IMG/VR virus record: IMGVR_UViG_3300009169_000001 | Span: 36,395 to 100,394 of that record | Length of the DNA: 64,000 bases | Source: a virus | Direction: 5' to 3' (one strand) | In this document: positions 29,249 through 52,051 of the stretch, piece by piece | How the letters are laid out: each line of letters begins with the position of its first letter | Numbering within the stretch: position 1 is the stretch's first letter | Notes under the pieces: model-generated | Database searches by the model: none | Told to the model about the DNA's origin: nothing | Seen by the model: only the letters and a program-made list of their open reading frames with translations | Program-made: the position numbers and the translations under genes

Positions 29249-31102
29249 ATGGCCATAACGAAGGTACCGAAGCCGGACGCGCCTACCAGTAAGGTGACGT
29301 TTGCAGGGATCCCGATCAAGAAGCGGGACACCCAAGCCACGGTCGTGGACAACTTGATGTACGAGGACCAGTTCGCTGGACTGTACTGGAGTGACGTCAA
29401 CGCCACCAACCTGCTGATCGAGCCGCCGTACAACCCCAAGGTACTGTTCGGGCTGGTCACCAAGAACAACATCCTGTCCCAGTGCATCTCCGCCATGGAG
29501 GTGAACGTGGACGGCACCGGCTACACCATTGAGCCGGTAGACGAGACCAGCAACGCCGATCCTGACGATGAGTACAAGACGCTGGACGCGTTCCTGAAGG
29601 AGCCGTTTCCAGAGGTCGGGCTCATCAGCATCCGCCGCCGACTTCGCATAGACCTTGAGTCCACGGGCAACGCCTACCTTGAAGTGCTACGCAGTTTGGC
29701 GGGCGATGTGACCTTCCTGCGCTGGGTAGACTCGACCGACATGAGACTGGTCAAGCTCGACGAAGCCGTGGAAGTGGAGAAGCAGATTACCCGCAACGGC
29801 AAGAAGGTCACGGCCAAGATGCTGACGCGGGAGCGTCGATACGCCCAGAAGGTAGGTGAGCAGACCATATTCTTCAAGGAGTTTGGGGCCAGCCGAGAGA
29901 TCGATCGTAACACGGGCGAATGGGTGGATGGCAAGAATCAAGGGGCCAAGGTCACCAAGGCCGACAAGGAACAGACGCTGGGCACGGAGATCATCCACCT
30001 GAAGGTGAACCCTGACGCCAACAGTGCGTACGGCCTGCCCCGCTGGATCAACCAAGTCCCCAGCGTACTAGGTAGCCGCAAGGCCGAAGAGTTCAATCTG
30101 GAGTTCTTCGACTCCGGCGGTGTGCCGCCTGCAGCCATCTTCATCCAAGGGGGGGCTGTCGCCGATGACGTGACCCAGCAGCTGAAGGCCTACTTCAACG
30201 GTGACGCCAGCAGCAAGCACAGGGTAGCCATCGTGGAGGTGCAGAGCGCGTCCGGTAGCTTGGCCAACCCCGGCTCTGTGAAGGTGACCACTGAGCGCTT
30301 CGGTGAGTCCAAGAACGACGCCATGTTCCAAGACTACGACAAGAACTGCGAGGAGCACATTCGCGTGGGCTTCCGTCTGCACCCGTTGTTCCTCGGTAGG
30401 GCACAGGACTACAACTTTGCTACCGCCATGACCGGGTACATGGTGACCGAGGCGCAGGTGTTTGCCCCTGAGCGGGTTGAGTTTGATGAAATCATCAACA
30501 ACAAGATTGTCCGGGCCATGGGCATAACCAAGTGGACCATGAAATCCAAGCCGCTGACTATCAAGAACGTTGAGGTCCAGCTGTCGGCCATGGAGCTGGT
30601 AAAGACCATGATCGACCCCGAGGACCTGATTGGGTCCGTGAACGACATGGTATCGCTGGACCTGAAGTACTCGAAGGAAGCACACGACAAGCACTTGGAG
30701 TCCCTAAACCCGATCCCGCCCGCTATGCCCGGCCAGCCTGCCGCCGGTGGCAAGGTGACGCCCGCTGCAGTAGGGAAGCCGAAGACCACGCAGCCCAGCA
30801 ACGTGACGCCCATCAAAGACGCCAAGGATACGCGCCGAGGTAAGCTGGTGAAGAAAGCTGAGGAGATGGACGCTGAGGACGTGGTGACGCTGGTCACCGA
30901 TTGGTCTATCGCCATGGGTCTGGAAGTAGGCGAGATCGACGACGAGGCCGTGACTCACGTCCTGAAGGCGGCCCGCGACCTGAATGACTCGCAGCGCAGG
31001 ATCTTCAACAACGTATTGGCGACCAAGGCCTTTGTGGGCGTGGGCATAGACGCCGAGGGCTTGGCTGCGATAGCAGGGTGCTGCGCTCACGCAATGGAGT
31101 AG
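29249..31102 (+). CDS. portal protein
   Basis: IEPPY, DLESTGNAYLEV, YGLPRW, FFDSGGVP, DYNFATA; precedes the head genes. Confidence 0.88.
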   Translation: MAITKVPKPDAPTSKVTFAGIPIKKRDTQATVVDNLMYEDQFAGLYWSDVNATNLLIEPPYNPKVLFGLVTKNNILSQCISAMEVNVDGTGYTIEPVDETSNADPDDEYKTLDAFLKEPFPEVGLISIRRRLRIDLESTGNAYLEVLRSLAGDVTFLRWVDSTDMRLVKLDEAVEVEKQITRNGKKVTAKMLTRERRYAQKVGEQTIFFKEFGASREIDRNTGEWVDGKNQGAKVTKADKEQTLGTEIIHLKVNPDANSAYGLPRWINQVPSVLGSRKAEEFNLEFFDSGGVPPAAIFIQGGAVADDVTQQLKAYFNGDASSKHRVAIVEVQSASGSLANPGSVKVTTERFGESKNDAMFQDYDKNCEEHIRVGFRLHPLFLGRAQDYNFATAMTGYMVTEAQVFAPERVEFDEIINNKIVRAMGITKWTMKSKPLTIKNVEVQLSAMELVKTMIDPEDLIGSVNDMVSLDLKYSKEAHDKHLESLNPIPPAMPGQPAAGGKVTPAAVGKPKTTQPSNVTPIKDAKDTRRGKLVKKAEEMDAEDVVTLVTDWSIAMGLEVGEIDDEAVTHVLKAARDLNDSQRRIFNNVLATKAFVGVGIDAEGLAAIAGCCAHAME

Positions 31103-31107
31103 TGGGC

Positions 31108-33351
31108 ATGACGGTAAAAGTTGAGGCTTTCCTAGCGATTGAGGATAGCCTGACCGCTCGTTTACAGAAGACCTACACGCGACTGGCCCGTGGGTACGAG
31201 CGTGCGGTGCAGGCAGCCATGGCCGAAGGTGATGTGCTAAAGGCGCAGGCCGTCGCCGAGAGCATCGACATGACCCCGGTCTACACCGAGAACGAGTCAT
31301 TCATCCGCATGCAGACCTACGCCTCGCTGACGTTCGGGGCCACACGCCTGACACCCGAGCCCAAGGACACGTCTGTTTCCACAGGTATCTACTCCGGCCT
31401 CGTGAACCGCATGATGAAGAAGCTGAAGGCCGAGATCGTCGGCACGTTCACGCAACGCGTGCAAGACATGATGGTGCAGTTAATTGCACAGGAAGGTGCG
31501 GGCGAGACTGTTGATGAACTGGTCGTACAGAAATACAACGAGAACCAACCCCGTGAGCCCAAGGGGTCCCCCATCGGTGGCCGCTTCAAGGGTGGTGGTG
31601 GCGGCACGGGCCGCACCCTGTACCATGTGACCCTGACCTCACGTGTAGAGGCCATCCAAGAGAAGGGTCTGCTACCCATGCAGACCAGCAACTGGATTCA
31701 AGCAGGTAGCGGCCAGCGCTATGGTGCGGGGGAGGTGTACGCCTTTGAGTCCAAGAAGGATGCGATTCGATGGGCCGCACGCTGGGACTGGCAATTGAAC
31801 AAGGCCACCGGCACCGGTGACGTGAGCATACTGGAGGTGGACAGTGATCCAGATGACTGGCAGGTAGATGAGAACGACCCGCTGAGCCAAGCAGGCGGCG
31901 AGGGGCGCTGGTTCAAGCGCATGGCGAGGATACCCCCTGAGTTTATCGGAAAGCCGTCCAAGGTCACTGCAGAGGCCATACGCTCGATCGTTATGGTGGC
32001 GAAGTACGACAAGAACCAACCCCGTGATCCCAAAGGCAGCCCCACCGGGGGTCAATGGACTTCACAGTACGCGTCCAGTGCGGATAACCCTGACGGCCTA
32101 CCCATGGATCAGGCCTCACGCTTGGAGAGGGCCCGACAGCAGGGCTTCGACACGAGCCGGGTGCTGTACCATGGGTCCAAGCAGGACATCAACGAGTTCA
32201 AGCCGGGCTACGATGATGGGCTGATCTTCCTGACCACCAACCCGGAGTTCGCGGCCAAGTGGATTCATGGCACCGGCGGCCTACGTACAAGAACGACGGG
32301 CCCCTCGGGAGAGCTGTGGGCCGACCAAGAGTACGATGCCCTGAGGGAGCGCATGAGGCCCCTACGGGCCAATTACCCTGAGGGAGACGACGGGGATACC
32401 GCGTACTATGACATGGTGTACGCCGAGAGAGCCAAGCTGGTATCCGCTAGTGCGGTGGACTCAGCGGTGTACCCCGTGTACCTGCGCGTGCACCCTGAGC
32501 AGATCTTCGACCCCCGTACCCAGTGGGCTGAGATCGAGGACACTCTCCGGGAGATCGGCAGGAAGCGACTACGGGAGACCGGTGAGGACCAAGGGTGGGA
32601 CAAGCTGATCGCCGAGGGCAGGCACAAGGAAGGTAACTGGATCATCTACGAGCGCAAGGAAGTGGTGCGGGCCCTCAATGGCATGGGATACAACGCCATG
32701 TGGATCCGTGAGTCCGCACTGCAGGATGCACCCACCGAGACCATTGCGGTGTTCGACCCTAGTGACATTCGATCCGTGAATGCGGTGTTCGACCCCAAGC
32801 ACCAGTTCAGCAAGAACATCCTCAAGTATGATGAGAACCAGCTTAGGGACAGCAGGGGTAGGTGGGCCACAATGTGGCATCTGACTGATAACCCTCAGTT
32901 TGCGTTAGATTCGGCACGCACCCCGGAGAAGAACACCTCGATGGGTCTGGGGGTTAAGCCGGGACTTTTTGTTGCTAAGGATCTGGAGCCATGGGTCAAT
33001 GGCTACGACTACGTGCGCCCGTTTGCAGTGGAGCTGAAGGTGCCACTGGATTTGTCCACCCCTGATCCCGGCATGTATGGCGGGGAGCGGTTTATTCCGG
33101 CGGAGAGATTTGGTGATGTGGAGGTATCCCGCGTGATACCTCTCGATGCGTATGCGCGTGAGGTCTACAATGACTATGGTTGGCTGGAATCGTGGCGGGA
33201 CTCACCCCCTATGGGCCAGAAACCTCCCGAGCGGTGGTACACAGGCCCTGACGTCCGGGTGATGCCTAAGAAACAACAGCGGGCGTACATTCAACTCGCG
33301 CAAGAGTATTTACGTGCTAACCGCCCATGGGTGTTGGACGAGCAGGAGTAA
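31108..33351 (+). CDS. polyprotein: MuF/gp7-like N-terminal region + three tagged ADP-ribosyltransferase-fold domains
   Basis: Helical N-terminal ~140 aa directly after portal; tags at 31522, 31993, 32815; domains LYHVT..GL.P..IPPE, LYHGS..VYPVYL..VFDP.DIRS, MWHLT..GLFV..ERFIP. Confidence 0.7.
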   Translation: MTVKVEAFLAIEDSLTARLQKTYTRLARGYERAVQAAMAEGDVLKAQAVAESIDMTPVYTENESFIRMQTYASLTFGATRLTPEPKDTSVSTGIYSGLVNRMMKKLKAEIVGTFTQRVQDMMVQLIAQEGAGETVDELVVQKYNENQPREPKGSPIGGRFKGGGGGTGRTLYHVTLTSRVEAIQEKGLLPMQTSNWIQAGSGQRYGAGEVYAFESKKDAIRWAARWDWQLNKATGTGDVSILEVDSDPDDWQVDENDPLSQAGGEGRWFKRMARIPPEFIGKPSKVTAEAIRSIVMVAKYDKNQPRDPKGSPTGGQWTSQYASSADNPDGLPMDQASRLERARQQGFDTSRVLYHGSKQDINEFKPGYDDGLIFLTTNPEFAAKWIHGTGGLRTRTTGPSGELWADQEYDALRERMRPLRANYPEGDDGDTAYYDMVYAERAKLVSASAVDSAVYPVYLRVHPEQIFDPRTQWAEIEDTLREIGRKRLRETGEDQGWDKLIAEGRHKEGNWIIYERKEVVRALNGMGYNAMWIRESALQDAPTETIAVFDPSDIRSVNAVFDPKHQFSKNILKYDENQLRDSRGRWATMWHLTDNPQFALDSARTPEKNTSMGLGVKPGLFVAKDLEPWVNGYDYVRPFAVELKVPLDLSTPDPGMYGGERFIPAERFGDVEVSRVIPLDAYAREVYNDYGWLESWRDSPPMGQKPPERWYTGPDVRVMPKKQQRAYIQLAQEYLRANRPWVLDEQE

Positions 33352-33355
33352 CTAT

Positions 33356-33550
33356 ATGAACTACCCCAAACTGATCGCGAGAAACAAATACGATGGTGCT
33401 GGTGTGTGGGTACTGGGCGAGGGCCGCAATGCCCCGGCTGTTATCAGCGTGGAAGCGCCTGACCCTGAGACGGCGGTGACCAGACCCCTGCAGGCACTGG
33501 TAGCCCACCTCGATCTGGGTGAATGGCAGAAGGTCACGGATACTGACTGA
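33356..33550 (+). CDS. small partner protein (putative immunity), 64 aa
   Basis: GGAG RBS, directly after an effector polyprotein. Confidence 0.5.
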   Translation: MNYPKLIARNKYDGAGVWVLGEGRNAPAVISVEAPDPETAVTRPLQALVAHLDLGEWQKVTDTD

Positions 33551-35616
33551 TGTACGAGATCCTCAAGTTCGACGAGAGCCAACCACGCCACCCCAAAGGC
33601 AGCCCCGAGGGAGGCCAGTGGAGCGGGGCCCCCGTTCCCAAACTGGGCAAATACGCCCGCATGGTCATAGAGCAGGTGAACTCCAACACGTGGTACCACG
33701 GGAGCAGACGCAACCTCGACATTGACAATCTGGACCTCGACCAACCCATCTACCTGACGGAGTCTGCCCGGTACGCCAGCTACTATGCCGCAGGGGAAGC
33801 CACGGGCAGCCCACTCTCATTTAATCCCGCCAAGGACACACCCCTCCCTGACTTGAGCTACGAGGAGTGGGAAGCCGAGATTGAGGCGTCCGCCAAGACC
33901 CTGAAGCAACCCCTCGACACCGACCAGCAGTACACGCGCCTACGGGAATTGGAGGAGCTTGAGAACAAGTACCAAAGTGACAGGATCATGCACCAGATCG
34001 AGATCATCCCCGATGATGTTTGGGCCACGATTGAAGCCAAGTGGCAGGCGCAGAAGCCTGAGCTGGATGCACTGCGGGCCCGATGGGAAGAAGCGGATAA
34101 ATTGCGGGACGCCCATTTCCGCCTGATCAACCGGAGATACGGGCGGCCCCAGATATACCCAGTGAAGCTGGAGATCAAAGCCCCCTACCTGACCACCAAT
34201 GAAGATTTCATTCTAGGCTTTGAAGGCGGGCTCTCCATTAAGGAGGACGAAGACATCCAGCGACTATTGGCCAAGGGCTACGACTCCATTGTGTGGACAC
34301 CCAGCGCTGAAGAGATGGATGGATTCGAAGACTTCGGGAAGATGCAAGGGTACGCCTACGGCTCAGAACTACTGATCATTGACCCCAAGGTGATCAAGAA
34401 AATCCGCTCTGTTTACCGCAAGAGAGACCGCGTCCAGTTTTTGTCCGGGACAGACCTGCGCGTCCTGAAGTACGACCAAAATCAAAAAAGACACCCCAAG
34501 GGTCACCCGAAAGGGGGGCAGTGGGCGGATGAGGGCGCAGAAAACAGCGCACCACTGGCCGAAAGACTGACCAGTTTCATGGAAGAATTGTGGGCTACGA
34601 CGGACCCACACCCCTTCGCACATGGCATGCGGTTGACCAAGGACTGGGTGGGTTTGGAGGTGAGGCCGTTCGATAACGCGATCCACCTGAGTTCGATCAT
34701 GTCGTTTGTGCCCAAGGGCAAAGGGGCAGGCACCAGAGGTTTGTTGCAGTTAATTGCACTGGCAGACAAGCATCAGGTCGACATCACCGGGTTTGTAAAG
34801 CCGATCGAGAATGCGGGGTCTGATGAAGGTAAGCCGAGCCTGACCAAGAAGCAGCTGCACAAGTGGTACGCCAAGCATGGCTTCAAGAAGGACAAGGCGG
34901 GGGACTACATCCGACGCACGCCCAAGGTTGAGGTTGAGAAGTACAGCAAAGACCAGCCCCGACACCCGAAGGGCACGCGTGAAGGGGGACGCTTCGCTTC
35001 TTCAGGCAACCATGCGCTGGCCAACAATGGACGGGCCGCCCTGCGCCGGAAAGGCTTTGATCCAGATCAAGTGCTTCGGGATTTGAAGAAAGAACAGGCC
35101 AAATTCACCAAGAATGGCGCGAATTTGGGCATTCGGGTCGACGCCGACCTCGATCAAGAGGCCCTGCCTACTGAGGAACTGACTCGGATCATGAAAATGT
35201 TCCCGGCGAAGAGCTACGAGGGCTGGACCTTGGCACATGGTGAGGAGTTCGTCTCCCCAGCCACACCACCCCCGATCAAACTGGGCACACCGAAGCAATG
35301 CTTTGCCAACGCGGGCAAGTACGTGGCCATGGACTCCGTGTTCGCCAAGGATGATGTGGAGTATGTGGAGGGCTTTGTGATGGACGCTCGCCTGCCATTC
35401 CCTATCCACCACGCGTGGTACGTGAAGAGCGGGACCAATGAGGTAATCGACCCCACGATGGGCTGGAGACCCGGAGCTGCCTACTATGGTGTGCGCTTCG
35501 ATCGGGCATTCCTGCGCAAGAAGCTGTTCGACCAGAAATACTATGGCCTATTCACCGATGGCCTGCGGCCCCTGCCGCTGATACTAGGTGAAGATGAGGA
35601 CTACGACTACACATGA
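33550..35616 (+). CDS. polyprotein: tagged ART-like + GNAT + papain/transglutaminase-like domains
   Basis: Tags at 33556, 34459, 34930; WYHGS..IYPVKL..GYDS; KGKGAGT..WYAKHGF; CFANA..HHAW..IDPT. Confidence 0.75.
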   Translation: MYEILKFDESQPRHPKGSPEGGQWSGAPVPKLGKYARMVIEQVNSNTWYHGSRRNLDIDNLDLDQPIYLTESARYASYYAAGEATGSPLSFNPAKDTPLPDLSYEEWEAEIEASAKTLKQPLDTDQQYTRLRELEELENKYQSDRIMHQIEIIPDDVWATIEAKWQAQKPELDALRARWEEADKLRDAHFRLINRRYGRPQIYPVKLEIKAPYLTTNEDFILGFEGGLSIKEDEDIQRLLAKGYDSIVWTPSAEEMDGFEDFGKMQGYAYGSELLIIDPKVIKKIRSVYRKRDRVQFLSGTDLRVLKYDQNQKRHPKGHPKGGQWADEGAENSAPLAERLTSFMEELWATTDPHPFAHGMRLTKDWVGLEVRPFDNAIHLSSIMSFVPKGKGAGTRGLLQLIALADKHQVDITGFVKPIENAGSDEGKPSLTKKQLHKWYAKHGFKKDKAGDYIRRTPKVEVEKYSKDQPRHPKGTREGGRFASSGNHALANNGRAALRRKGFDPDQVLRDLKKEQAKFTKNGANLGIRVDADLDQEALPTEELTRIMKMFPAKSYEGWTLAHGEEFVSPATPPPIKLGTPKQCFANAGKYVAMDSVFAKDDVEYVEGFVMDARLPFPIHHAWYVKSGTNEVIDPTMGWRPGAAYYGVRFDRAFLRKKLFDQKYYGLFTDGLRPLPLILGEDEDYDYT

Positions 35617-37601
35617 TGGACCTCCACGACGACGAGTACCTGTACCTCAACCAATCGGTGGAAGGCCAGCCGATTGAGCCTGATGAGATGGCGATGCTGG
35701 CAACGACCAGCCTGATGCGCATCCTCAAGTACAGCAAGGACCAGCCGAGGGCCCCGAAGGGTACGGCTATCGGGGGCCAGTTCGTGGATGATCTGGAAGC
35801 GGGGCTTGCCATGACCCGTACGAAGATTTTGGCACTGGGCAACAAGTCTGGCATGGAGCACTTGGCGGTGTTGGGCCCTGATGGCAAGCTGGCGGTCGAT
35901 ATCAAGCGCGGCAACAAGAGCAGCGTGGAGTTCACTCCCGAGATGCTGAAGCTGTTCGAGATGGAGGAGAACGACTACCTGCTGGTGCACAACCACCCGA
36001 AGACGTCATCGCTCTCTATGGCGGATCTGACCGCAACCATGTTCCCCGGCGTCAAGGCCATTGAGGCCGTAGCCAGTGATGGGCCCAACAACATTGCGTT
36101 CCGGGGGTCCATGATCATTGGTAAGGATCTGGACAGCGAAGAGCTGCGCAACACCATAGGCGGGTACCTGCGCAACATGAACACCCGGATCGGTGACCAT
36201 ATCTTCAAGCCGCTGTCGGAGAAAATGACTTCAGGTGACATCACCTCTTTTGAGGCTAACCTGTTCCACACCCACTCGGTCAATGAGGTGCTCCGGAGGG
36301 CCAAGGTCACCGACTACAAGGTGGAGGATCCCACCGGGATGCTGCCCAAGATCGAGAAAAAGGTACGCAAGAGCGTAGCGTGGGATGATGTTCTGAAAGC
36401 CGCCCAGAAAGATCTGGAGGGTATGGTGGATATGGAGTTCCTGCAGGAAGACATCGCTGCCCATGAGAGCGAGCGAGTGCACAAGGCCGACTGGTTCGTG
36501 GGCCTCATCGACCCTCCCACTCTGGAGTACGCCACCACCGAAGAGCTGCGGGAGTGGAAAGCCGATCTGGACGCTATGCCCATGTTCGCAGACAAGCCTG
36601 ACATGGTGCGGGATGTGCACGCCGCTCTGGCAGCGCGAGGCCAGTACGCGTTCATCCTCAAGTACAGCGAGAATCAGCCCCGAGACCCTAAGGGCACTCC
36701 CACCGGAGGCCAGTGGTCGGCGACGGGGGGTGAGGCAGGCAACACTTACGGTGCAATTAATGTCAATAGCGGGGCGGTGCGTTACCGGGAGGATGCACTT
36801 CTCGATGCCATGGTGCAACGCGGGACGTTTACCGAGCCTAAGGCCATTGATCTACTCAACCGTGCCGATGAAAACCTTCGGGGGGTACTGGCTGAGGCCG
36901 ACATCGTGATCAACCGCAGGACCCTTGAAGTGCTCGCAGGCATTGCCATGGACGGGCGCATCAAATCTCAGTTCGAGACTGGCAAGTCCGATGGCATGCT
37001 GGACCCCAATTTCCGGAGCAAGGCTGAGAGCATGTTGTTCGGCATCGATCACCATGATGACGATGAGGACCTCTGGGATGAAGATGGGGGCCGCAAGCCC
37101 GGCAGCAAGATCAAGGAGTTCCCCCCTGCGCTGCGCCCTATCTATGGGTACGCGAAAGATGAGGATGATGATTTCGATGTGGCCTCTGAGTACGGGCGCT
37201 ACCAGCTGGTACTGAAGAATTCTGTGCGGGAGCGCACTACCATTACCGGGGGCGACAGTCTGGACTACTCGTTCGATGACCCACGCTACATGCCCTCCCC
37301 GATCGATAGCCCCTCGGTGGTGTCGTTTACCAACCACAGCGACCCTGATGAGGCAGCCAACTTTGCGGAGGTCGCCGCCAATGGTGGACTGGGTAACACC
37401 AAGGACATCCGGGCACACGTGCGGTACAGCGGCTATCTTGAGGTCCAGATCCATGGGGGCGTCAAGCTGTCCGATGTCAAGAAGCTGCGGGTGCCCAAGC
37501 CGGTGGTCGATCAGGAGCAGTATCGGGAGCAGGCTGAAGTGATCATGCAGATGTACCGTGACGCCGGGATAGAGGTCGAAGTTTACGAGTTTGACAGGTA
37601 A
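35613..37601 (+). CDS. polyprotein: tagged JAB/MPN-like + DUF3626-like domains
   Basis: Tags at 35718, 36651; E..HNHP..SLS..D; KSQFETG, RPIYG, YG, RTT..GDS, YLEVQIHG. Confidence 0.7.
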   Translation: MMDLHDDEYLYLNQSVEGQPIEPDEMAMLATTSLMRILKYSKDQPRAPKGTAIGGQFVDDLEAGLAMTRTKILALGNKSGMEHLAVLGPDGKLAVDIKRGNKSSVEFTPEMLKLFEMEENDYLLVHNHPKTSSLSMADLTATMFPGVKAIEAVASDGPNNIAFRGSMIIGKDLDSEELRNTIGGYLRNMNTRIGDHIFKPLSEKMTSGDITSFEANLFHTHSVNEVLRRAKVTDYKVEDPTGMLPKIEKKVRKSVAWDDVLKAAQKDLEGMVDMEFLQEDIAAHESERVHKADWFVGLIDPPTLEYATTEELREWKADLDAMPMFADKPDMVRDVHAALAARGQYAFILKYSENQPRDPKGTPTGGQWSATGGEAGNTYGAINVNSGAVRYREDALLDAMVQRGTFTEPKAIDLLNRADENLRGVLAEADIVINRRTLEVLAGIAMDGRIKSQFETGKSDGMLDPNFRSKAESMLFGIDHHDDDEDLWDEDGGRKPGSKIKEFPPALRPIYGYAKDEDDDFDVASEYGRYQLVLKNSVRERTTITGGDSLDYSFDDPRYMPSPIDSPSVVSFTNHSDPDEAANFAEVAANGGLGNTKDIRAHVRYSGYLEVQIHGGVKLSDVKKLRVPKPVVDQEQYREQAEVIMQMYRDAGIEVEVYEFDR

Positions 37602-37645
37602 CCTCGCCCCACCGACAATTGCCCTACGCGCCAAGAGACACCACC

Positions 37646-38194: not shown

Positions 38195-38200
38195 AAACAT

Positions 38201-43477: not shown

Positions 43478-44275
43478 ATGTCCCTGTTTTCCATCCTAAA
43501 ATTCAACCCGTACCACGACCCGAAGGATGGCCGGTTCACCACCGGCGACGGGGGTGGTAAGGGCGTTGTTACTACTTCAGATGTGAACGCAGCCGCCAAG
43601 GCGCTGGCTGAGGGGCGGAAGGTACGCCTGACCAGCACCAAGCAGGTATCGACCCTGCTGGCCAAATTGCGAGAGATCGTCGCCGACGCCAAGGCCAAGG
43701 GCAAAGACGCCCCCAATTACAACTTGTGCAGCGTGTCCGTGAAGGGCACCAACCTCTTCTGTGCCGAGAACAAGGGCCTTGCCCGTGTGCAGATGCCGCA
43801 GCTCTCTGGCAAGCCCCTGCCGGGCAGTAAGGGCGACAAGCTGCCCAAGGATAAGGACGGCGGCATCGATCTTACTGGTAAGTTCCGGGAGCACCTTGAG
43901 AAGGCGCTAGGCGTCAAGGTGTCGGATGAGGATGAGAAGGCCTCGTACCTGAAAGCCACACAGAACGAACTGAACGGCGTGAAGGTGGCGGGCATGTCCG
44001 GTGCCTTGGAGTCCGGCACCCTGCCGGATGCCAGACTGTTCGTGTCCAAGGACAACTACGTCGTGGACGGGCACCACCGCTGGGCGGCCAATGTTGGCGC
44101 TGACGCGTCTGATGGGAAGCTGGGGGACCTCACGATGAAGGTGGCGCGGGTAGACATGGACATCATCACCCTGCTGTACGAGTCCAATAAATTCGCCAAG
44201 GACTGGGGCCTGCCCCAGATGAGTGCCGCCAACGTGAAGAAGACCACGGGCTGCGGGTGCGCTACGTGCAGTTAA
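43478..44275 (+). CDS. tagged ParB/Srx-like domain protein
   Basis: SILKFNPYHDPKDGRF tag; LKATQ, VSKDNYVVDGHHRWAA; promoter TTGACA(43422)-17-TAGCAT. Confidence 0.75.
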   Translation: MSLFSILKFNPYHDPKDGRFTTGDGGGKGVVTTSDVNAAAKALAEGRKVRLTSTKQVSTLLAKLREIVADAKAKGKDAPNYNLCSVSVKGTNLFCAENKGLARVQMPQLSGKPLPGSKGDKLPKDKDGGIDLTGKFREHLEKALGVKVSDEDEKASYLKATQNELNGVKVAGMSGALESGTLPDARLFVSKDNYVVDGHHRWAANVGADASDGKLGDLTMKVARVDMDIITLLYESNKFAKDWGLPQMSAANVKKTTGCGCATCS

Positions 44276-45207
44276 TTGCACTGCTGAAGTTCAACAAGCA
44301 CCACGAGCCTGCAGGCACTGAGATAGGCGGCCAGTTTGCTTCCGTTGAGGCGTGGCGTCTGCAGCCGGGGATCTACCAGAAAAACGGCGTGTGGGTCCGC
44401 AACGGCAAGACGGTAACCGGCGCTGACGCAGCGACGTTGAAGCGCATGCGCGTGCCCCCAGCGTGGAAGGACGTCAAGGTCAACCCCAACCCTGATGCCA
44501 AGCTGCAGGTGATCGGCAAGGACGTGAAGGGCCGAACCCAGTACCTGTACTCCGCCGCTCACAGTGAGCAGGCCGCCGCTGAGAAGTTTGCCCGGATCAA
44601 GGCGTTCCACGATGCGCTGCCCAACCTGCGCAACCACATGACGCGGGACATCCATGACCCCAACCAGCCTGCAGCTGTGCGGGAGTCCGCTCTGGTGCTG
44701 CGCCTGATCGATAAAACGACGTTCCGGGTGGGCTCGAATGCGGAAACCCATGGGGTTAAGAAGGCCTATGGGGCCACGACTTTGCGGGGCGAGCATGTTA
44801 CAATACTGGGTAACAAGGTCGCGTTTTCCTTCGTTGGAAAGAAGGGCGTCCAGATAGACCAAACGATCACCGATCCGGTACTGGCGAAGGAGCTGCGAGC
44901 CCGGAAGCGCGAGGCCAAGAACGGCCCACTGTTCAAGGTAACCGACAGCCGCCTGCGCCAATACATCAAAGATGAGGGCTTCGGGGGTTTTTCGCCGAAG
45001 GACTTCAGGACATACCACGCGACCTCGATGGCGCTGGCGCTGGTGCGCAAGACCCCTATGCCGGGGAACCGTACGCAGGCCAAGAAGGCCAGAAAGGAAG
45101 TTGCGACCAAGGTGTCTACCAAGCTGGGCAACTCGCCCGCCATGGCACTGGCATCGTACATCAGCCCCGAGGTGTTCTCGGACTGGGAGGATCTACTCTA
45201 TGACTGA
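44266..45207 (+). CDS. tagged DNA topoisomerase IB
   Basis: VPPAW, GKDVKGRTQYLY, FRVG, GATTL, F.GKKG, KDFRT, LGN, SYI (catalytic R-K-R-N-Y); start may be 44257 or 44266. Confidence 0.88.
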   Translation: MQLIALLKFNKHHEPAGTEIGGQFASVEAWRLQPGIYQKNGVWVRNGKTVTGADAATLKRMRVPPAWKDVKVNPNPDAKLQVIGKDVKGRTQYLYSAAHSEQAAAEKFARIKAFHDALPNLRNHMTRDIHDPNQPAAVRESALVLRLIDKTTFRVGSNAETHGVKKAYGATTLRGEHVTILGNKVAFSFVGKKGVQIDQTITDPVLAKELRARKREAKNGPLFKVTDSRLRQYIKDEGFGGFSPKDFRTYHATSMALALVRKTPMPGNRTQAKKARKEVATKVSTKLGNSPAMALASYISPEVFSDWEDLLYD

Positions 45208-45334
45208 GAAAGACGACACGATCAACGAAAAGAAGGAGGAGCAGTTAATGCTCGATTTCTTCGGGACCGTGCAATACGACAAGACCAAGCCTTGGCAGAA
45301 AACGCCGGAGACTGAAGAGGATCCTGACGAATGA
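45200..45334 (+). CDS. small acidic partner protein, 44 aa
   Basis: GGAGG RBS; overlaps the topoisomerase stop; ends ETEEDPDE. Confidence 0.5.
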   Translation: MTEKDDTINEKKEEQLMLDFFGTVQYDKTKPWQKTPETEEDPDE

Positions 45335-46089
45335 CACTGCTGGCCATCTTCAAGTTCAACCCCTATCACGATGAGAAGGGGCGTTTTGCTACGGCTGACG
45401 GCCATGCGTCCCGGTCACCCGCCCAAGGGCAGGGCATCGATTTCGTCTCACCGAACAAGGCCAACCTGAGCTATGTCCGGGCCAAAGAGCGGCTGCAGTC
45501 TCGTGAGCAGTCCCTGCTGGTCCAGTACGGTACCAAGATCAACGCAGCACTGGGCATCAAGGGCTCGATCGCATCGGTAGTAGGGGCGTGGGCTGACGGC
45601 GCTGAGAACAGCACTGTGGGGGTGTACGACGATGACACCCCCTACGAGGCCATCCGCGCCGCAGCCTCCCTGAAGGGGCTACTGGAGCGGCAGAAAGCGG
45701 TCATCGCATTTAAGGCCAGACCCAAGGGCAAGGCCCGTGTGTCCATGCTCGAATTGAAAGGTGGATTGGACATACATCATAATGCTATGATAGAAGCAGG
45801 CATAGAATTTCACACCCTGCAGCCGACCGCTGATGGCGTGAAGGCGTGGGTGTTTCAAGATAAGAGTTCCTCGGCCCTCAACACGAAACTGGCGCACTAC
45901 GCCAAGTCGATGGGGGGGCAGCTAACCACGTGGGCCGGAGACGGTGAGTTCGTGGGGAGCTGGTCTTCCCGCACGGAGGGGAAAGCCGCGTACCTGAAGG
46001 AGCTGGACAGCTACACCGAGCGACACCCGGAGACCAAGGCTGGGATCGACGGAATACTCAAGGACTGGAGACGGAGGTCTGGGCAATGA
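45331..46089 (+). CDS. tagged protein of unknown function
   Basis: AIFKFNPYHDEKGRF tag; GAWADGAENS motif. Confidence 0.7.
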   Translation: MTLLAIFKFNPYHDEKGRFATADGHASRSPAQGQGIDFVSPNKANLSYVRAKERLQSREQSLLVQYGTKINAALGIKGSIASVVGAWADGAENSTVGVYDDDTPYEAIRAAASLKGLLERQKAVIAFKARPKGKARVSMLELKGGLDIHHNAMIEAGIEFHTLQPTADGVKAWVFQDKSSSALNTKLAHYAKSMGGQLTTWAGDGEFVGSWSSRTEGKAAYLKELDSYTERHPETKAGIDGILKDWRRRSGQ

Positions 46090-46283
46090 AGGCGAAGGGC
46101 GTGATACCGGGGTGGGAAGAAAAGCTGAGCCCCGAGGACAGGGCTATTCTTGAGAGGCACCGGAAGGTGTATCCTGCCATGATCGCGGCCAAGCCACGTA
46201 TGACCGACGAAGAATTTATGGGCCTCACCGAAGCGTCGGCGGAGCAGTACAAGAAAGGGATAATCCTGCCGGGGGTGGGGTAG
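46086..46283 (+). CDS. small partner protein, 65 aa
   Basis: ATGA-coupled, GGAGG RBS. Confidence 0.5.
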   Translation: MKAKGVIPGWEEKLSPEDRAILERHRKVYPAMIAAKPRMTDEEFMGLTEASAEQYKKGIILPGVG

Positions 46284-46284
46284 C

Positions 46285-47301
46285 ATGAATTTTCTCGACA
46301 TTCTGAAGTTCGATGAGAACCAGCCGCGCAAGCCGAAGGGCACCCCTGAGGGCGGCCAGTTTGCCTCTACTGGGGGCAAGGCCTCTGGCGGCGGTGTCAT
46401 GGGCGGCCCCGGCGCGGGCAGCACCTTAGACGGGACCTCTGCAGCGCTGCTCCGGGATAAGAACATGGAGGCCGCAGCCCTGAGAGGCGTACAGGCCGCG
46501 CTCAAGAACAAAGGCTTGGACCCTTCCATGGCGGAGCAGCTGCTGGCCCGAGGTAAGGCGATCGAGAAGGAAGTCGAAGACAACTACACCAAGAACGCCA
46601 CCGAGTTCATGCACAAGCTGAAGAACGGCGACTGGACACCTGAGCGGCGGGATCTGCACACCAAAATTCTTGAGGAGTTCTTCGCGAACGAAGACCGGTT
46701 CAAGCCGCCCACCGGTGAGCCCCCGCAGGTACTGCTGTTAGCAGGCCGACCGGGCTCCGGCAAATCCAATTTCGGCAAGGCCCTCAAGATTTACGACAAG
46801 GAGAGCTACATCGTACTGGACTCGGATGAGTTCAAGGCGTTGTTGCCTGAGTACGACCCGGAGCGTCCGGGGTACACTCACCGGGAAGCCTCGGATCTGA
46901 TGGACACCGCTGGCTTGATAGCGCGGGCCAAGGGACTGAACATCGTCTATGACATGACGATGAAAAAGCCCCCAGATGACCTGATCACTATGTTCAAGAA
47001 CCACGGCTACAAGATCGAAGGGCATCAGATGGATGTCTCTGAAGAGACCTCCGCCGAGCGGGCCTACTTCCGGTGGGTTAATGACGGCCAGAACGGCACA
47101 CCGGGCCGCCTCGTACCCCTGAGCATTATTAAGGAAATGAAGAAAATTCCTGAGGTGTTCAAGGCGACAGCCAGTAAATTAGACGCATGGACGCACTACA
47201 CGCATGAGAATCTGGGAGAACAGATCCGGGTAGCGGCCAGTGAGAAGTACAGGGTAGCGAAGGCTTTCCTGAAACGAATCCTCAAGGGAGTTACACGATG
47301 A
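46285..47301 (+). CDS. tagged zeta-toxin-like P-loop kinase
   Basis: DILKFDENQPRKPKGTPEGGQF tag; AGRPGSGKS, LDSDEFK, HREAS, NIVYDMT. Confidence 0.8.
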   Translation: MNFLDILKFDENQPRKPKGTPEGGQFASTGGKASGGGVMGGPGAGSTLDGTSAALLRDKNMEAAALRGVQAALKNKGLDPSMAEQLLARGKAIEKEVEDNYTKNATEFMHKLKNGDWTPERRDLHTKILEEFFANEDRFKPPTGEPPQVLLLAGRPGSGKSNFGKALKIYDKESYIVLDSDEFKALLPEYDPERPGYTHREASDLMDTAGLIARAKGLNIVYDMTMKKPPDDLITMFKNHGYKIEGHQMDVSEETSAERAYFRWVNDGQNGTPGRLVPLSIIKEMKKIPEVFKATASKLDAWTHYTHENLGEQIRVAASEKYRVAKAFLKRILKGVTR

Positions 47302-47486
47302 CCGATTTATCCAAGGATGAAATACGCCAACGGGCCTACGATGATACCCCGGACCCCATGGGCGTGACCATCCTGTTCAGCATGTGGTACAACGACGCAG
47401 GGAAGAAGCCCGAGGAACTGGGCCCTGAGTATGATGACTTGAAAGTGGCGTACGCCAATTGGTTGAAGGCCCGAGGATATGCCTGA
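47298..47486 (+). CDS. small partner protein (putative antitoxin), 62 aa
   Basis: ATGA-coupled to the zeta-like gene. Confidence 0.5.
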   Translation: MTDLSKDEIRQRAYDDTPDPMGVTILFSMWYNDAGKKPEELGPEYDDLKVAYANWLKARGYA

Positions 47487-47808
47487 TCTACTCCGCATCT
47501 TAAAAATGAACCCGTGGCATGATGAAGCGGGTCGATTCGCTCATGCACCGGGGGGTCGGAACCTTGTGCCCAACATCGCGTGGATATCGGACGGCAAAAA
47601 TCGGATATCCACCGACGGGCGCTTCAAGATCGAACCTTCCAGTTCCAATGGCCAGAAATTTAAGAAGGGCACCCCGGTGTACCTCCTGACCGACACTCGC
47701 CACAACAGAGACACCCTGCTGAAGTTCCCCAAGTACCGGGAGTTTATGAAGTTGGAAGACGCGAAAATCGAAGCGAACATGCGGCTGGAAGAACTTGTTG
47801 ATAGCTAA
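47479..47808 (+). CDS. tagged small protein of unknown function
   Basis: RILKMNPWHDEAGRF tag. Confidence 0.65.
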   Translation: MPDLLRILKMNPWHDEAGRFAHAPGGRNLVPNIAWISDGKNRISTDGRFKIEPSSSNGQKFKKGTPVYLLTDTRHNRDTLLKFPKYREFMKLEDAKIEANMRLEELVDS

Positions 47809-49102
47809 GGCTGAGCGGATTGTCCGGGACTTCACGTCCTTTGACACCGAGGCCAAAAACCTATTGCAGTTAATTTCACAGCTGCACACGAGTCGTGTGT
47901 CGGGCTACGGCTACACCGCTGAGGCCGAGATACTGGGCGTGGAGTACTACGCCATCAATGAGCAGCTGGATGTGCGCACCTGCCCTGTGTGCGAGATGAT
48001 GCACGGCAGGGTGTTCCCGGTTTCCGAGGCTAGACGCTTGCTCGACGATATCCTCTTCGAGGAGGATCCCGAGATCATCAAGACCAAGCAGCCGTGGCCT
48101 AGCCAGAAGCAGGCCGCCGTAGCATCAATGCAATTAATGTCACCGGAAGAATTGATCGGTAAGGGGTGGCACATCCCACCCTTCCACCCGTGGTGCAGGG
48201 GCATACTGGTCCACGTGAAGGATGTGCCCGACAAGATCATGCCTGTGGAAGTGGCGGCCCTGCAGGAAGTACTGTCTTCACCGGTACACGCTGGGCGTCC
48301 GATCGAGGTTACGGATTTTGAGGCTCTCAAGCAGATCTCCACCCTAGACTTCAGCATTCAAAACCCCAATGGGAAGATCCCGGAGCTGCGCCCCGAGCAC
48401 TTGGCCACGTGGAACAAGGTGATGGGAGACGTCACCCCCGCCGCGCTGTACAACGTGGTCAACAACGGATTCAAAGGTGCGTTGGCGGTGAACGGCGGGG
48501 AGTTTACCCTGAGCATAGGGGGGGACAACATCCTCATGTCTGCCCGGATGTGGGATGACGTGAAGGGTACCGTGGGGCGCAGCATACTGGCGCACCTAGA
48601 GCGCACTTTTGTTCGCGAGCGGGATGGCGTGCTCAATGTAGAGCATGATTACTTCAAGATTGCTAACCGGCACGCCCGCAGCGGGTACGGCAAGAATTTC
48701 ATGTCCGAGTCCTTTCGCCTCTACGAAGAGATGGGCGTCGAGGCGGTAGATGTAGATGCCAACATCGAGGTGGGGGCCTACGCGTGGGCCAAGTACGGCT
48801 TCAAGCCTAAAAACCTCAAGGTGTCCAAGGCCCTCTCCGATAATTTGAGAACCACCCTGAGAGCGATGTCTTGGCGCTTGTCCCCGGATGTTGTGGACGC
48901 CGTGCAGGAGGTGATCACCAAGATCCAGACCGATCCCACGGCCTTGTGGGTCCTGTCTGACATCGGGTTCATCACTGAAGGTGAGCCCCTTGCCAAGAGC
49001 CTGCTGTATCGTAAATCGTGGCTGGGTACGATTAGACTGGATGATGATGTAGCCATGAATCGGCTATGGGCCTACGTAGGGAGACCTGAAAATGTCAAAT
49101 GA
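47795..49102 (+). CDS. MuF/gp7-like C-terminal domain + C-terminal GNAT-like effector
   Basis: LDVRTCPVC..MHG and PPFHPWCRG MuF motifs; ARSGYG..GAYAWAKYGF; TTG start uncertain. Confidence 0.8.
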   Translation: MLIAKAERIVRDFTSFDTEAKNLLQLISQLHTSRVSGYGYTAEAEILGVEYYAINEQLDVRTCPVCEMMHGRVFPVSEARRLLDDILFEEDPEIIKTKQPWPSQKQAAVASMQLMSPEELIGKGWHIPPFHPWCRGILVHVKDVPDKIMPVEVAALQEVLSSPVHAGRPIEVTDFEALKQISTLDFSIQNPNGKIPELRPEHLATWNKVMGDVTPAALYNVVNNGFKGALAVNGGEFTLSIGGDNILMSARMWDDVKGTVGRSILAHLERTFVRERDGVLNVEHDYFKIANRHARSGYGKNFMSESFRLYEEMGVEAVDVDANIEVGAYAWAKYGFKPKNLKVSKALSDNLRTTLRAMSWRLSPDVVDAVQEVITKIQTDPTALWVLSDIGFITEGEPLAKSLLYRKSWLGTIRLDDDVAMNRLWAYVGRPENVK

Positions 49103-49268
49103 GATGTTCACCCGGAATGGACGTGTCAAAACGGATGAGGCCCTGCACAAGCCCATGCTGGCCAACTTCGAGGCCGACAAAATGACGCAGGAGCAATCTG
49201 CGGCGGTCGCCCGTTCGTGGGGCATGTCCACCGAGATGGTCCAAAAGCTGTTCCCACTGGCAAATTGA
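49092..49268 (+). CDS. small partner protein, 58 aa (not in ORF track)
   Basis: GGGAG RBS; MSNEMFTRNG...LFPLAN*; overlaps the MuF-GNAT stop. Confidence 0.5.
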   Translation: MSNEMFTRNGRVKTDEALHKPMLANFEADKMTQEQSAAVARSWGMSTEMVQKLFPLAN

Positions 49269-49318: not shown

Positions 49319-49918
49319 ATGTCCGAATTAAAGCTGGCCTCCGAAGAGAAGCGCATCGTCTGGGCCGAGGTCTATGTGCCTAACGTACCCGACTCGGACG
49401 GTGATTTCATGGACCACGAAGGTGTGGAGAAGGCCGCCTACCAGTTCATGATGGACCTGAACCTCAAGAAGATCGATGTGCAGCACTCCAACGACCTAGT
49501 GCCGGGGGCCAGTGTCGTCGAGTCGTTTATCGCCCGCAAAGGGGATCCGGATTTCATCGAAGGATCGTGGGTGGTAGGGGTGCACATTCCAGATGACGCA
49601 ACATGGTCCCAGATCAAGAAGGGCGAGATTAACGGCTTCAGCCTCGAAGCACTGGTCAAGGGCGAGCACGTCGATATCGAGGTGGAGATCCCACCAGTGC
49701 TCACCGGAAGGACGTCAAAATCTGAAGGTTTCGATAGTCACGAGCACACGTTTTACGTTACGTACGACCCGACGGGCAATCTTGTGGGTGGGCGCACGGA
49801 TGTGGTTGGCGGGCATTCTCATATTATCAAGCGGGGAACTCTTACCGAAGTGGCTTCGGGGCACGACCACCGATTCTCCTTCATCGAGGGACTAGGGCCC
49901 CTGTACGGACCCCAGTGA
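49319..49918 (+). CDS. prohead protease, XkdF-like
   Basis: VY.P..PDSDGDFM, IDVQH, GSWVVG, IKKGEINGFS; promoter TTGACA(49265)-17-CAGAAT. Confidence 0.8.
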   Translation: MSELKLASEEKRIVWAEVYVPNVPDSDGDFMDHEGVEKAAYQFMMDLNLKKIDVQHSNDLVPGASVVESFIARKGDPDFIEGSWVVGVHIPDDATWSQIKKGEINGFSLEALVKGEHVDIEVEIPPVLTGRTSKSEGFDSHEHTFYVTYDPTGNLVGGRTDVVGGHSHIIKRGTLTEVASGHDHRFSFIEGLGPLYGPQ

Positions 49919-49988
49919 AACCAATTGCACTGAAAAAAAGTGCTAGAAAAGTTTCTTCGGAGGCTTTTCAGGGTGTTAGTTTGGCACC

Positions 49989-51089
49989 ATGAGCAAGACG
50001 ACTATCAGAGCGCGAAAGTTATCGGACCCCAAAGTCCAGTTCATTTCTCTGGTGGACCGGGGTGCTAATAGGGTTCCATTTAGAATTATCAAGCAACAGG
50101 AGAACGGCATGATAGACATCGGTAGACTGTTTAAGGGCAGCAAAGAGCCTGCTACGACCAAAGTCGTCGTTGCCGCTCTGGCTGTTGAGAAGCGCGAGGA
50201 CATGGCCCCTGTTCGCGAAGCGATCCAGAAGGCCGGGTTCAAGGTCGACGCCGAGATCGAGCGGGAAGACGGCGCTGTACTCTATCCTCAGGTCGAGAAT
50301 TTCGACGAAGCAGCTTGTACAGTGTACAAGGTGAACGGCGACGTACTGGCCCTGATGACTGGCACCATGGTTGCCAAGGCAGAGCAGACCGGCTTCATCA
50401 AGGACCTGTTTGGCCGCTACGGCTACGTGCCCTCCATGCAGGAAGCGTCGCAGGCTGTGGTCCAGTCCGTACTGACCGAAGCGGGCAACGTCACCGAGGA
50501 GAACTTCGAAGGCTTCCAGACCATGATGAAGTCCGACTTCTCTGAGCTGGCCAACTACATCAGCGACACGCTGGTGAGCATGCCTGCCAACCTGTTCGAC
50601 ATCAAACTGCCCGAGGTAGTTGCCAAGTCTGAAGTGGCCGACGGCGCAGAAGACGATGCGACCGACGTGGGCACCGGTGAAGGCGAAGAAGCCCCCGCTG
50701 AAGAGGCCCCCGCTGCTGAAGGCGAAGCTGAGGGCGGAGTTGAAGTGGCCAAGGCAGAGACCGACATTGCAGCACTGATTGCCAAGGCGATGGGCCCCGT
50801 GGCCACCCAGATGGGTGACATGGTTACGGCCCTCACCGGCATCAGCCGAGAAATTACCACCCTGAAGTCAGAAGTCTCTGACATCAAAGAGGGCCAAACT
50901 GAGCTGGCCTCCAAGGTGGATGAAGTCGATACGGTAGCGAAGGCCGCCAATGAAGCTGTTGGTGGGACCATCGTGAGTTCAGCACCCCCCGGTGATAAAA
51001 AGCCGGTAAGCCGTATCGTTAAGGCTGAGGATTCCGATCCGAGGCAAGGCGTATTTGACACCGCGTTCCTTCCGGGCGCACGTCATTAA
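49989..51089 (+). CDS. scaffold-like head protein
   Basis: FISLVDRGAN N-terminal motif, acidic linker, coiled-coil; lies between protease and capsid. Confidence 0.7.
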   Translation: MSKTTIRARKLSDPKVQFISLVDRGANRVPFRIIKQQENGMIDIGRLFKGSKEPATTKVVVAALAVEKREDMAPVREAIQKAGFKVDAEIEREDGAVLYPQVENFDEAACTVYKVNGDVLALMTGTMVAKAEQTGFIKDLFGRYGYVPSMQEASQAVVQSVLTEAGNVTEENFEGFQTMMKSDFSELANYISDTLVSMPANLFDIKLPEVVAKSEVADGAEDDATDVGTGEGEEAPAEEAPAAEGEAEGGVEVAKAETDIAALIAKAMGPVATQMGDMVTALTGISREITTLKSEVSDIKEGQTELASKVDEVDTVAKAANEAVGGTIVSSAPPGDKKPVSRIVKAEDSDPRQGVFDTAFLPGARH

Positions 51090-51115
51090 TCTGAGAGCTA
51101 AATAGGAGCTTTTCA

Positions 51116-52051
51116 ATGGAAAATCAAAGTCTCATCAAAAAAGCCGATATCGCTCTTGGCGACTTGGCATCCGGCGGTGGTCTGCTGAACCCTGAGATGA
51201 CGGATAAGTTTATCCGTACCCTCATCGACAGCCCGACTATCATAAACCGTGCGCGTACTGTCACCATGAATGCGCCCACTCGCAAGATCAACAAGATCGG
51301 CTTCGGCACTCGGATCTTGCGTCCTGCGCTGTCTGCTACAGCACTGTCTTCAGGGGATCGCGTTAAGCCCGACCTGAGCCAGATCCAGCTGGACACCAAA
51401 GAAGTCATCGCGGAAGTTCACATTCCGTACGACGTTCTGGAAGACAACATCGAAGGCGGCAACATCAACGCTGGGATGGAGTCTGGTGCTGGCGGTCTGC
51501 ATGCGACCATCGTTCAGCTGATGGCCGAGCGTGCTGCGCTTGACCTCGAAGAGCTGCTCCTGTTGGGCGACACCCTTTCTGGCGACCCCTACTTGGCTCT
51601 GCTCGATGGCTACCTGAAGCGTTCAACTGCTCACATCGTTGACGCTGGCGGTGCAACCATCGACAAGGCCCTGTTGAAGGCAGGTATCAAGGCGATGCCC
51701 GACAAGTACCTGCGGAACCGCGCTGCTCTTGAGCACTTCGTGTCCGTAGACAACGACACCGAGTACCGCGATACCTACGCGAGCCGTCAGACTGCTCTGG
51801 GTGACAACATGCTGCAGGGCACTGGCCCGGTCTACGCATGGGGTTCTCAGCTGAAGTCAGTGCCCCTGATGCCTAACACCAGTGGCCTGTACTGCAACCC
51901 GCTGAACCTGATCTTCGGTATCCAGCGTCGCATCACGATCGAATACGACAAGGACATCCGCACCCGCGAGTTCATCGTCGTAATCACCACTCGTGTGGCG
52001 AACCAGATCGAAGAAACCGACGCGGTCTGCAAGTACATCAACATCGGCTAA
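51116..52051 (+). CDS. major capsid protein
   Basis: GGLLNPE, VLEDNIEG, DLEELLLLGD, NLIFGIQR; highly expressed codon style; followed by a terminator. Confidence 0.9.
   Translation: MENQSLIKKADIALGDLASGGGLLNPEMTDKFIRTLIDSPTIINRARTVTMNAPTRKINKIGFGTRILRPALSATALSSGDRVKPDLSQIQLDTKEVIAEVHIPYDVLEDNIEGGNINAGMESGAGGLHATIVQLMAERAALDLEELLLLGDTLSGDPYLALLDGYLKRSTAHIVDAGGATIDKALLKAGIKAMPDKYLRNRAALEHFVSVDNDTEYRDTYASRQTALGDNMLQGTGPVYAWGSQLKSVPLMPNTSGLYCNPLNLIFGIQRRITIEYDKDIRTREFIVVITTRVANQIEETDAVCKYINIG

Follow-up and report, generated by a model that had tools for sequence, protein, structure and literature searches.

A lysine motif as the predicted cutting code of an XkdF-type prohead protease in an uncultured phage

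Does a short motif that recurs through the head module of an uncultured 100-kb phage mark the places where a prohead protease cuts? The motif, in which lysine follows a hydrophobic residue and any one residue, was seen in a window of 64,000 nucleotides (nt) covering positions 36,395-100,394 of the IMG/VR virus record IMGVR_UViG_3300009169_000001; the window is the whole stretch of DNA that was analysed, and coordinates below refer to it. The motif opens a repeated peptide, here called the tag, in a series of cargo genes, and it recurs in the portal, MuF, scaffold and major capsid proteins; the gene of an XkdF-type protease (49319-49918) adjoins those of the scaffold and the capsid. According to the original prediction, this protease recognizes the motif and dices the cargo polyproteins into free enzymes inside the prohead, which would make them active only once packaged; on this last suggestion the analysis gave no evidence either way. 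We read the motif as a protease code because it appears Lys-specific, confined to the prohead, turning over in the scaffolds, fixed at the capsid N-terminus and adjoined by the XkdF protease. With a probability of about 0.6, [V/I/L]-x-Lys, followed mostly by Ala or Ser and then Asp or Glu, is the predicted cutting code for the scaffold, the capsid leader and the MuF junction. To this extent the original prediction stands, on Lys specificity, conservation and the adjoining protease; for the portal protein the same reading is weaker, and cutting at the tags, hence dicing of the cargo polyproteins, is put forward tentatively.

The motif was counted in a loose form, [ILVM]-x-K-[ASGYF], and in a strict form, hxK[AS][ED], i.e., [VIL]-x-K followed by [AS][ED]; the expected numbers of sites came from shuffles made per protein with the composition kept. 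The 14 peptides named in the original prediction are all present in the genes to which it assigned them, and all 14 tags open with [VIL]-x-K. The loose motif was found 55 times in the 6,766 amino acids (aa) encoded by 29249-52051, compared to 55 times in 12,213 aa elsewhere (Fisher p=0.0026). Compared with shuffles, the head module had 55 sites vs 30.2 (z 4.9), the upstream genes 36 vs 42.5 and the downstream genes 19 vs 14.2. The expected enrichment of the head module was, therefore, present overall but not after removal of the 14 tags and nine scaffold sites, which left 32 sites in 6,400 aa, the background level (p=0.65). Since the excess consists entirely of these tags and scaffold sites, the loose motif is not general to head proteins, and we rejected it as a general property of the module. 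The case depends on specific sites, not on the loose motif.

The strict motif was examined in relatives, for which we used 80 related IMG/VR loci; these gave 56 distinct scaffolds, and about 79 relatives entered the counts per protein class. Strict sites were frequent in the scaffold (200 vs 18 in shuffles), the capsid (78 vs 5) and the protease (26 vs 4), and they exceeded the shuffles in the portal (17 vs 5), MuF (25 vs 10) and other upstream open reading frames (ORFs; 35 vs 21) as well. In the downstream tail genes, on the other hand, they were under-represented (21 vs 33). The Lys form hxK[AS][ED] occurred 148 times in the 56 scaffolds vs 14.8 expected, while the Arg form did not occur at all vs 5.3 expected. 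By these sequence counts, the motif is Lys-specific and confined to prohead-internal proteins, and they support the view that it behaves as a protease recognition code and not as an effect of composition. Among the individual sites of the original prediction, those of the scaffold, the capsid N-terminus, the second MuF part (LIAK/AE; the slash marks the predicted bond throughout) and the tag lysines exceeded chance and were backed by relatives, while LVKK/AE of the portal came out weak. The cargo-end sites RVAK/AF and RILK/G are not conserved in homologues and were dropped as cut sites.

The genes in question follow the order portal, polyvalent protein, cargo genes, small ORFs, five cargo genes, C-terminal MuF part, protease, scaffold and capsid:

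29249-31102, + strand: portal protein (PF04860, phrog_12)
31078-33351, + strand: polyvalent protein, the MuF N-terminal part (residues ~11-150) fused to three tagged cargo modules
33550-35616, 35613-37601 and 37619-38194, + strand: three cargo genes with six tags (positions given with the tags below)
38-43 kb: block of small untagged ORFs
43457-44275, 44257-45207, 45331-46089, 46285-47301 and 47479-47808, + strand: five stand-alone cargo genes, all of them tagged at the N-terminus
47795-49102, + strand: C-terminal part of a split MuF/gp7-like head protein, which aligns to the relatives' single MuF
49319-49918, + strand: XkdF-type prohead serine protease, 199 aa (PF14550, phrog_15223)
49989-51089, + strand: scaffold protein, 366 aa
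51116-52051, + strand: major capsid protein, XkdG-like, 311 aa (phrog_1623 at 1e-100)

All real genes of the window are on the + strand; ORFs on the minus strand have a third-position GC content as low as is typical of shadow frames. Stenotrophomonas phage DLP5 has a capsid protein 64% identical to the window's, and the capsids of Rhodobacter, Rhizobium and Vibrio SIO-2-group phages share about 50% identity with it; no near-identical cultured phage was found in the database comparison.

The scaffold had nine [ILVM]-x-K-[ASG] sites, after K49, K81, K130, K181, K213, K255, K266, K318 and K345, compared to 1.35 expected in shuffles; by arithmetic, cutting at all nine would give pieces of 11-52 aa. 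Twenty-eight database homologues at 26-56% identity had 4-11 such sites each vs 1.3-3 expected, in a protein that diverges fast (the corresponding capsids are 66-89% identical). An unbiased count of gapped patterns in scaffolds placed V.K first (240 vs 92), and the top repeated patterns in the homologues were V.KA (79 vs 11.5) and V.KS (39 vs 5.1). With residues numbered P1, P2 and so on upstream of the predicted bond and P1', P2' downstream of it, the Lys-centred profile of the scaffolds has V/I in position P3, S/A in P1' and E/D in P2', a profile not seen in the proteins encoded downstream of the capsid gene. We also observed that 355 scaffold sites were spread over 82 alignment columns, with few hot columns and much turnover, as is seen for a short linear motif. 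Internal tandem duplication as the origin of the repeats was set aside on reading the flanks of six sites, which are unrelated; no repeat search was run.

The first 40 residues of the scaffold (49989-50108), VQFISLVDRGANRVPFRIIK, match a motif that stands before the protease domain where protease and scaffold are fused, namely in phrog_3017 (positions 2-33), gp5 of 0105phi7-2 and the protein of CPD4. In the window, the protease gene precedes the scaffold gene and does not have this N-terminal motif. The database call of a scaffold gene that starts at Met41 (P0121, 326 aa) is probably too short.

For the capsid protein, the cut is predicted after K9, MENQSLIKK/ADIALGDL (nt 51131-51148). Across 120 homologues this site had K at P1 and A at P1' in every protein, D at P2' in 119 of the 120 and I/L/V at P3/P4, while P2 and the preceding 3-7 residues varied both in sequence and in length. 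The strict sites counted in the relatives' capsids amount to one N-terminal site per protein. In 134 distant representatives at 35-57% identity, the column was K in 118 and R in 12 (basic in 130, or 97%); at the level of the family, then, the alignment indicates a basic rather than a strictly Lys position. The distant homologues with Arg in place of the N-terminal Lys made up about 9% of the set P0149-P0298, e.g., LIQR/AD and VER/AT. The protein itself, with a conserved core from residue ~10 and a separate 366-aa scaffold gene, has no scaffolding domain of about 100 aa fused to its N-terminus as in HK97. A search of PDB chain sequences with the capsid and the protease found nothing.

An experiment on a homologue bears on this site. 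In virion mass spectrometry of Bacillus phage 0105phi7-2, capsid residues 1-10 were not covered, and the authors concluded that virions lack these ten residues; many spectra were obtained for a peptide starting at A12, and K11 was retained in few (PMC10219371). The end of the protein falls directly before the predicted K11/A12 (TIIEK11/ADVT), that is, at the predicted bond or one residue from it.

More distant phages with XkdF-type proteases were compared as well. The numbers listed are hxK[ASG] sites vs those expected, followed by the capsid N-terminus:

Bacillus phage 0105phi7-2: gp5, an XkdF-scaffold fusion, 15 vs 2.0; TIIEK/ADVT
Clostridium phage CPD4: fusion, 19 vs 2.3; KINK/AV
Streptomyces phage Jay2Jay: protease, 7 vs 1.6; LIEK/VI
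Methanobacterium phage Drs3: 5 vs 2.1; VANK/AS
phiH and PhiCh1: phiH prohead protease, 2 vs 1.15 (the count covers phiH); ITEK/NALT
Vibrio phage SIO-2: scaffold, 1 vs 1.3; IIQK/AD

DLP5, SIO-2, 0105phi7-2, CPD4, Jay2Jay and Drs3 have either the same gene order as the window or a protease-scaffold fusion. In the SIO-2 scaffold, P3 is small or polar, and any hydrophobic residue occupies P2, so that the code would differ between clades in its upstream half. Neither reviews nor genome papers on phiH, PhiCh1 and ChaoS9 state where the mature capsid protein begins.

The MuF gene offered a further boundary. Residues 11-150 of the 31078-33351 product align to the first ~135 residues of the relatives' single MuF, and residues 3-430 of the 47795-49102 product align to it from ~137 to its end. 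While the relatives' gene is intact, that of the window is split (31078-31533 and 47795-49102) by about 16 kb of tagged cargo genes and small untagged ORFs. At the corresponding junction, 20 of 23 relatives had h-x-K followed by A and E/D/A, 8-15 aa before a conserved FVSF (for example, VEVQK/AERIL, STVKK/AERFV and RSVQK/ADVPR). In the window, the VVQK of the N-terminal part runs straight into the first tag, and the C-terminal part begins M-LIAK/AERIV (nt 47798-47815). If MuF is normally cut there, the split of the gene would leave the mature products unchanged. We regard the split at the junction as the best single argument for the motif as the mark of a real processing boundary. The TTG start of the C-terminal part (47795 or 47798) overlaps by 14 nt the end of the tagged 109-aa gene 47479-47808, with GGAAG just upstream, an arrangement that suggests translational coupling of the two genes.

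The portal has two candidate C-terminal sites, LVKK/AE (K536, nt 30845-30862) and HVLK/AA (K573, nt 30956-30973). In 25 portals the strict sites were denser in the N- and C-terminal tails (4.5 per 1000 aa) than in the core (0.44).

The assignment of 49319-49918 to the XkdF protease family was borne out. The long ORF matched PF14550 (Peptidase_S78_2) over residues 39-146 with 89.6 bits vs a cut-off of 24 (E 2e-25), and it matched phrog_15223, annotated as 'protease', at 1e-69. The start is the ATG at 49319, with GGGGA upstream. Candidate catalytic residues His56 and Ser108, the latter the Ser of NGFSxEA, are invariant in 27 homologues. For an AlphaFold model of the protein (predicted local distance difference test, pLDDT, 78), the best match in the VIA wide structure search was T4 gp21 (5jbl_A; Z 7.4, root-mean-square deviation 2.8 over 104 aa), a middling score below Z 8, and the second was the varicella-zoster virus protease (Z 5.1); Foldseek against PDB gave no match below 1e-3. 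Many relatives have a site in the protease itself, 6-10 aa before the conserved core RIVWAEVY, e.g., HSAVIK/SEDQK and DLIIKK/AD. Literature searches on XkdF, XkdG and cleavage after lysine found no account of the specificity of XkdF.

The second half of the protease (residues ~125-199, 49691-49918) is His-rich, with H141, H143, H166, H168, H182 and H184 invariant (HxH...GHxH...GHxHRFS); the match to the gp21-like fold does not extend over it, and it resembles a metal-binding module. A 58-aa ORF (49092-49268) stands between the C-terminal MuF part and the protease. In DLP5, the gap between protease and scaffold holds a 57-aa ORF (L001 3883-4053) with a mini-tag, KVQK/ANPYRGAGGKF, and several relatives have tagged cargo genes between protease and scaffold instead of inside MuF.

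The 14 tag copies stand at the N-termini of cargo genes or between modules, in two forms, [IL]LK[YF]xxxQPRxPKGxxGGQ[FW] and [IL]LKFNPYHDxxGRF. Their lysines are:

31078-33351: K152 (VVQK/Y), K309 (MVAK/Y) and K583 (NILK/Y), of the tags at 31522-31599, 31993-32070 and 32815-32892
33550-35616: K6, K307 and K464
35613-37601: K39 and K350
37619-38194: K18
43457-47808, five stand-alone cargo genes: residues 8-15

A Lys two residues before the tag core was present in all 14 tags of the window and in 46 of 48 tags of the relatives, and P3 was mostly V/I/L. The conserved core is thus C-terminal to the Lys in the same tags, and a cut after the Lys would keep the tag on the cargo; a cargo targeting peptide of the T4 type, which ends at the cut and is removed, is not what we see here. 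Modules recur in different settings. The module at residues 308-463 of the 33550-35616 product matches one flanked by two tags in the polyprotein encoded at locus L019, the match of the 46285-47301 product starts directly behind a tag in the L025 polyprotein (tag at 478, match from 480), and the 44257-45207 product recurs in polyproteins of L016 and L019. Such movement between stand-alone genes and polyproteins fits dicing, and it also fits a plain shuffling of cassettes that carry a docking tag.

With respect to cargo domains, 31078-33351 had a sub-threshold match to ART-PolyVal (27.6 bits vs 31.2), and DUF3626 was above the cut-off in 35613-37601. The Pfam scan of 31078-38194 found no peptidase domain; no fold-based search for remote homologues was made. 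Literature searches with tag strings (NPYHD, NQPRD and others) found no account of the tag. In the 35613-37601 product, VRK/S, VLK/AA and VHK/AD are clustered at residues 250-293 (36360-36491), past the first cargo domain and ahead of the tag that follows; the cluster could be a linker that is cut more than once.

From the motif statistics, the conservation, and the family and fold of the protease, we infer the following course of events. Scaffold, capsid protein, MuF, protease and tagged cargo would co-assemble into the prohead, where the protease would cleave after Lys. The scaffold would be chopped into pieces of ~50 aa or less, able to leave the shell, and the capsid protein would lose a 9-residue leader. 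The halves of MuF would be separated by cutting; in the phage of the window they are already products of separate genes, the second of which still has the site. Less certainly, a cut before each cargo tag would turn the polyvalent proteins into single tag-plus-enzyme units. The fullest version of this proposal, which we regard as possible though short of an even chance, is a system that cuts as it loads: a MuF-anchored polyprotein and loose tagged proteins would enter the prohead, and the XkdF protease would dice them at the Lys before every tag. Since every tag would be a place of dicing, fusion or splitting of genes at a tag boundary would cost nothing and cassettes would swap freely. The interruption of the MuF gene, by 16 kb of cargo genes just where the protein would be cut, may then be a product of that process, a suggestion we make with the same reserve.

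Several observations weigh against reading the motif as a protease code, and they bear on three other explanations. The loose motif is at background level in the window outside the tags and the scaffold, and the cargo-end sites are not conserved, as might be expected if helical proteins rich in Lys, Ala, Glu and Val yielded V-x-K-A-E often by chance. Shuffles that keep the composition still give a 10-fold enrichment, however; the Arg form is absent, and the downstream proteins are without the profile. For the scaffold, the capsid and MuF, an origin by chance or composition is refuted by the shuffle enrichment, the absent Arg form and the capsid conservation, and we assign it next to no probability. 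Other difficulties concern single proteins. Twelve of the 25 portals have no strict site, and the protease N-terminus in the window (MSELKLASEEK) and in the nearest clade does not fit the strict motif. Of the 28 Lys in the SIO-2 scaffold (L085 3156-4331), 12 precede [ASG][ED] yet lack the hydrophobic P3. The digest of 0105phi7-2 was tryptic, and trypsin itself cuts after K11; the few K11-bearing peptides would allow a bond at E10/K11. Finally, the capsid site is conserved on both flanks, as would also be expected if it belonged to a structural element of the N-arm. This conservation would agree with a short binding motif that docks scaffold, cargo, protease and capsid N-arm to a common partner in prohead assembly, with no cleavage, as would the similar N-termini of capsid and protease in DLP5 (DLIKK/AD and DLIIKK/AD). 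We find this very unlikely: 4-13 repeats at shifting scaffold positions would be unusual for it, the virion capsid of 0105phi7-2 is without its first 10 residues, a dedicated protease gene adjoins those of scaffold and capsid, and the P3/P1/P1' register mirrors that of known gp21-type sites.

A more serious question is whether the code is real for scaffold, capsid and MuF while the Lys of the tag is left uncut. The Lys would then belong to a docking peptide of ~25 aa, a short amphipathic helix followed by the NPxHD..GRF or QPR..GGQW core, and the polyvalent proteins would be whole in the virion. Here P1' of the tags counts against cutting, being mostly Phe/Tyr/Trp and not Ala/Ser (aromatic in ~70% of tags), and so do the conserved hydrophobic residues at P6, P3 and P2, upstream of the Lys, because of which the Lys may be a mere part of the tag's binding helix. 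The core, on the C-terminal side, would not be removed by a cut, unlike the T4 targeting sequence, and polyvalent proteins of the N4 virion RNA polymerase type are packaged unprocessed (Iyer et al., PMC5512222). On the other hand, the residue is Lys, and never Arg, in 60 of 62 tags, and P1' is in some cases A, S, G, L, V or M, with A/S/G in several relatives (VLK/ANPYHD, VQK/SNPCHE). The MuF junction gives way to the first tag precisely at the Lys, and the boundary at the Lys is also where modules change places between stand-alone genes and polyproteins. We hold an uncut tag to be somewhat unlikely, but a serious rival to dicing.

Proteases of the XkdF type (PF14550) are common both in PBSX-like elements and in tailed phages that infect bacteria or archaea, and in the searchable literature we found no paper stating what they cut. 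If the predicted code is true, the mature ends of capsid, scaffold, portal and MuF would be predictable from sequence, and the overlooking of these cuts by tryptic proteomics would be explained by the Lys code; direct and cheap tests would be possible on cultured relatives. It would also reveal which sequence these phages cleave to host defences that sense proteases, e.g., the activation loops of CBASS (cyclic oligonucleotide-based antiphage signalling systems). If the code holds for the tags as well, it would reveal how the enzymes of the polyvalent cargo are set free within the head and explain the free fusing and splitting of cargo genes.

Among known systems, proteases of the gp21-like fold read a small or hydrophobic P3 and a fixed P1; T4 gp21 recognizes I/L-x-E (PMC12991175). 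Its sites lie in gp23, gp24, the core proteins of the scaffold and internal proteins that carry capsid-targeting sequences. Both there and in the proposed system, one prohead protease would use a three-residue code, with a hydrophobic P3 and a fixed P1, in the scaffold, the capsid N-terminus and packaged cargo, and the modelled fold of the window's protease is similar at a middling score (5jbl_A, Z 7.4). The two differ in P1 (Glu in T4, Lys here), in protease family (S77 in T4, PF14550 here), in the capsid leader, which is only ~9 aa here, and in the targeting sequence, which in T4 comes before the cut and is discarded, whereas the cargo tag would come after the putative cut and be kept. For SPN3US gp245 the code is A-x-E, flanked by Val at P4 and Ser at P1', and several sites in the portal, the ejection proteins and the propeptides are cleaved (PMC10052503). 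The system of phiKZ gp175 and SPN3US gp245 (A/S/G-x-E) shares with ours the many copies of one motif, and its P4 Val and P1' Ser resemble the V/I found here at P3-P4 and the Ser/Ala at P1'; its P1 is Glu instead of Lys, its propeptides are long (111-254 aa), and its sites were measured by mass spectrometry while ours are predicted only.

For polyvalent proteins, release by embedded zincin or C-terminal assemblin-like peptidases has been predicted (Iyer, Burroughs, Anand, de Souza, Aravind 2017, PMC5512222). The same account describes enzyme domains, ART-like ones among them, that are strung together and linked to MuF; it predicts that they are packaged and injected, and it proposes their processing into separate domains. 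The candidate here is different, a separate prohead protease acting at a Lys motif before a repeated tag. The HK97 protease gp4 (S78) is likewise a serine protease of the prohead and shares the broad class of fold, and the Pfam name Peptidase_S78_2 places XkdF nearby, while gp5 of HK97 has a delta domain, in contrast to the window's capsid protein with its separate scaffold gene. HK97 cuts after Lys103. On the statement in the original prediction that some prohead proteases cut after Lys, a paper on the D3 capsid did not name the P1 residue. Herpesvirus assemblins cut (V/L)-x-A/S, which is the same register as [VIL]-x-K/[AS] here. The principle is the known one of T4 and phiKZ; new would be the family of the protease, its specificity for Lys, a tag placed after the cut and the split of MuF.

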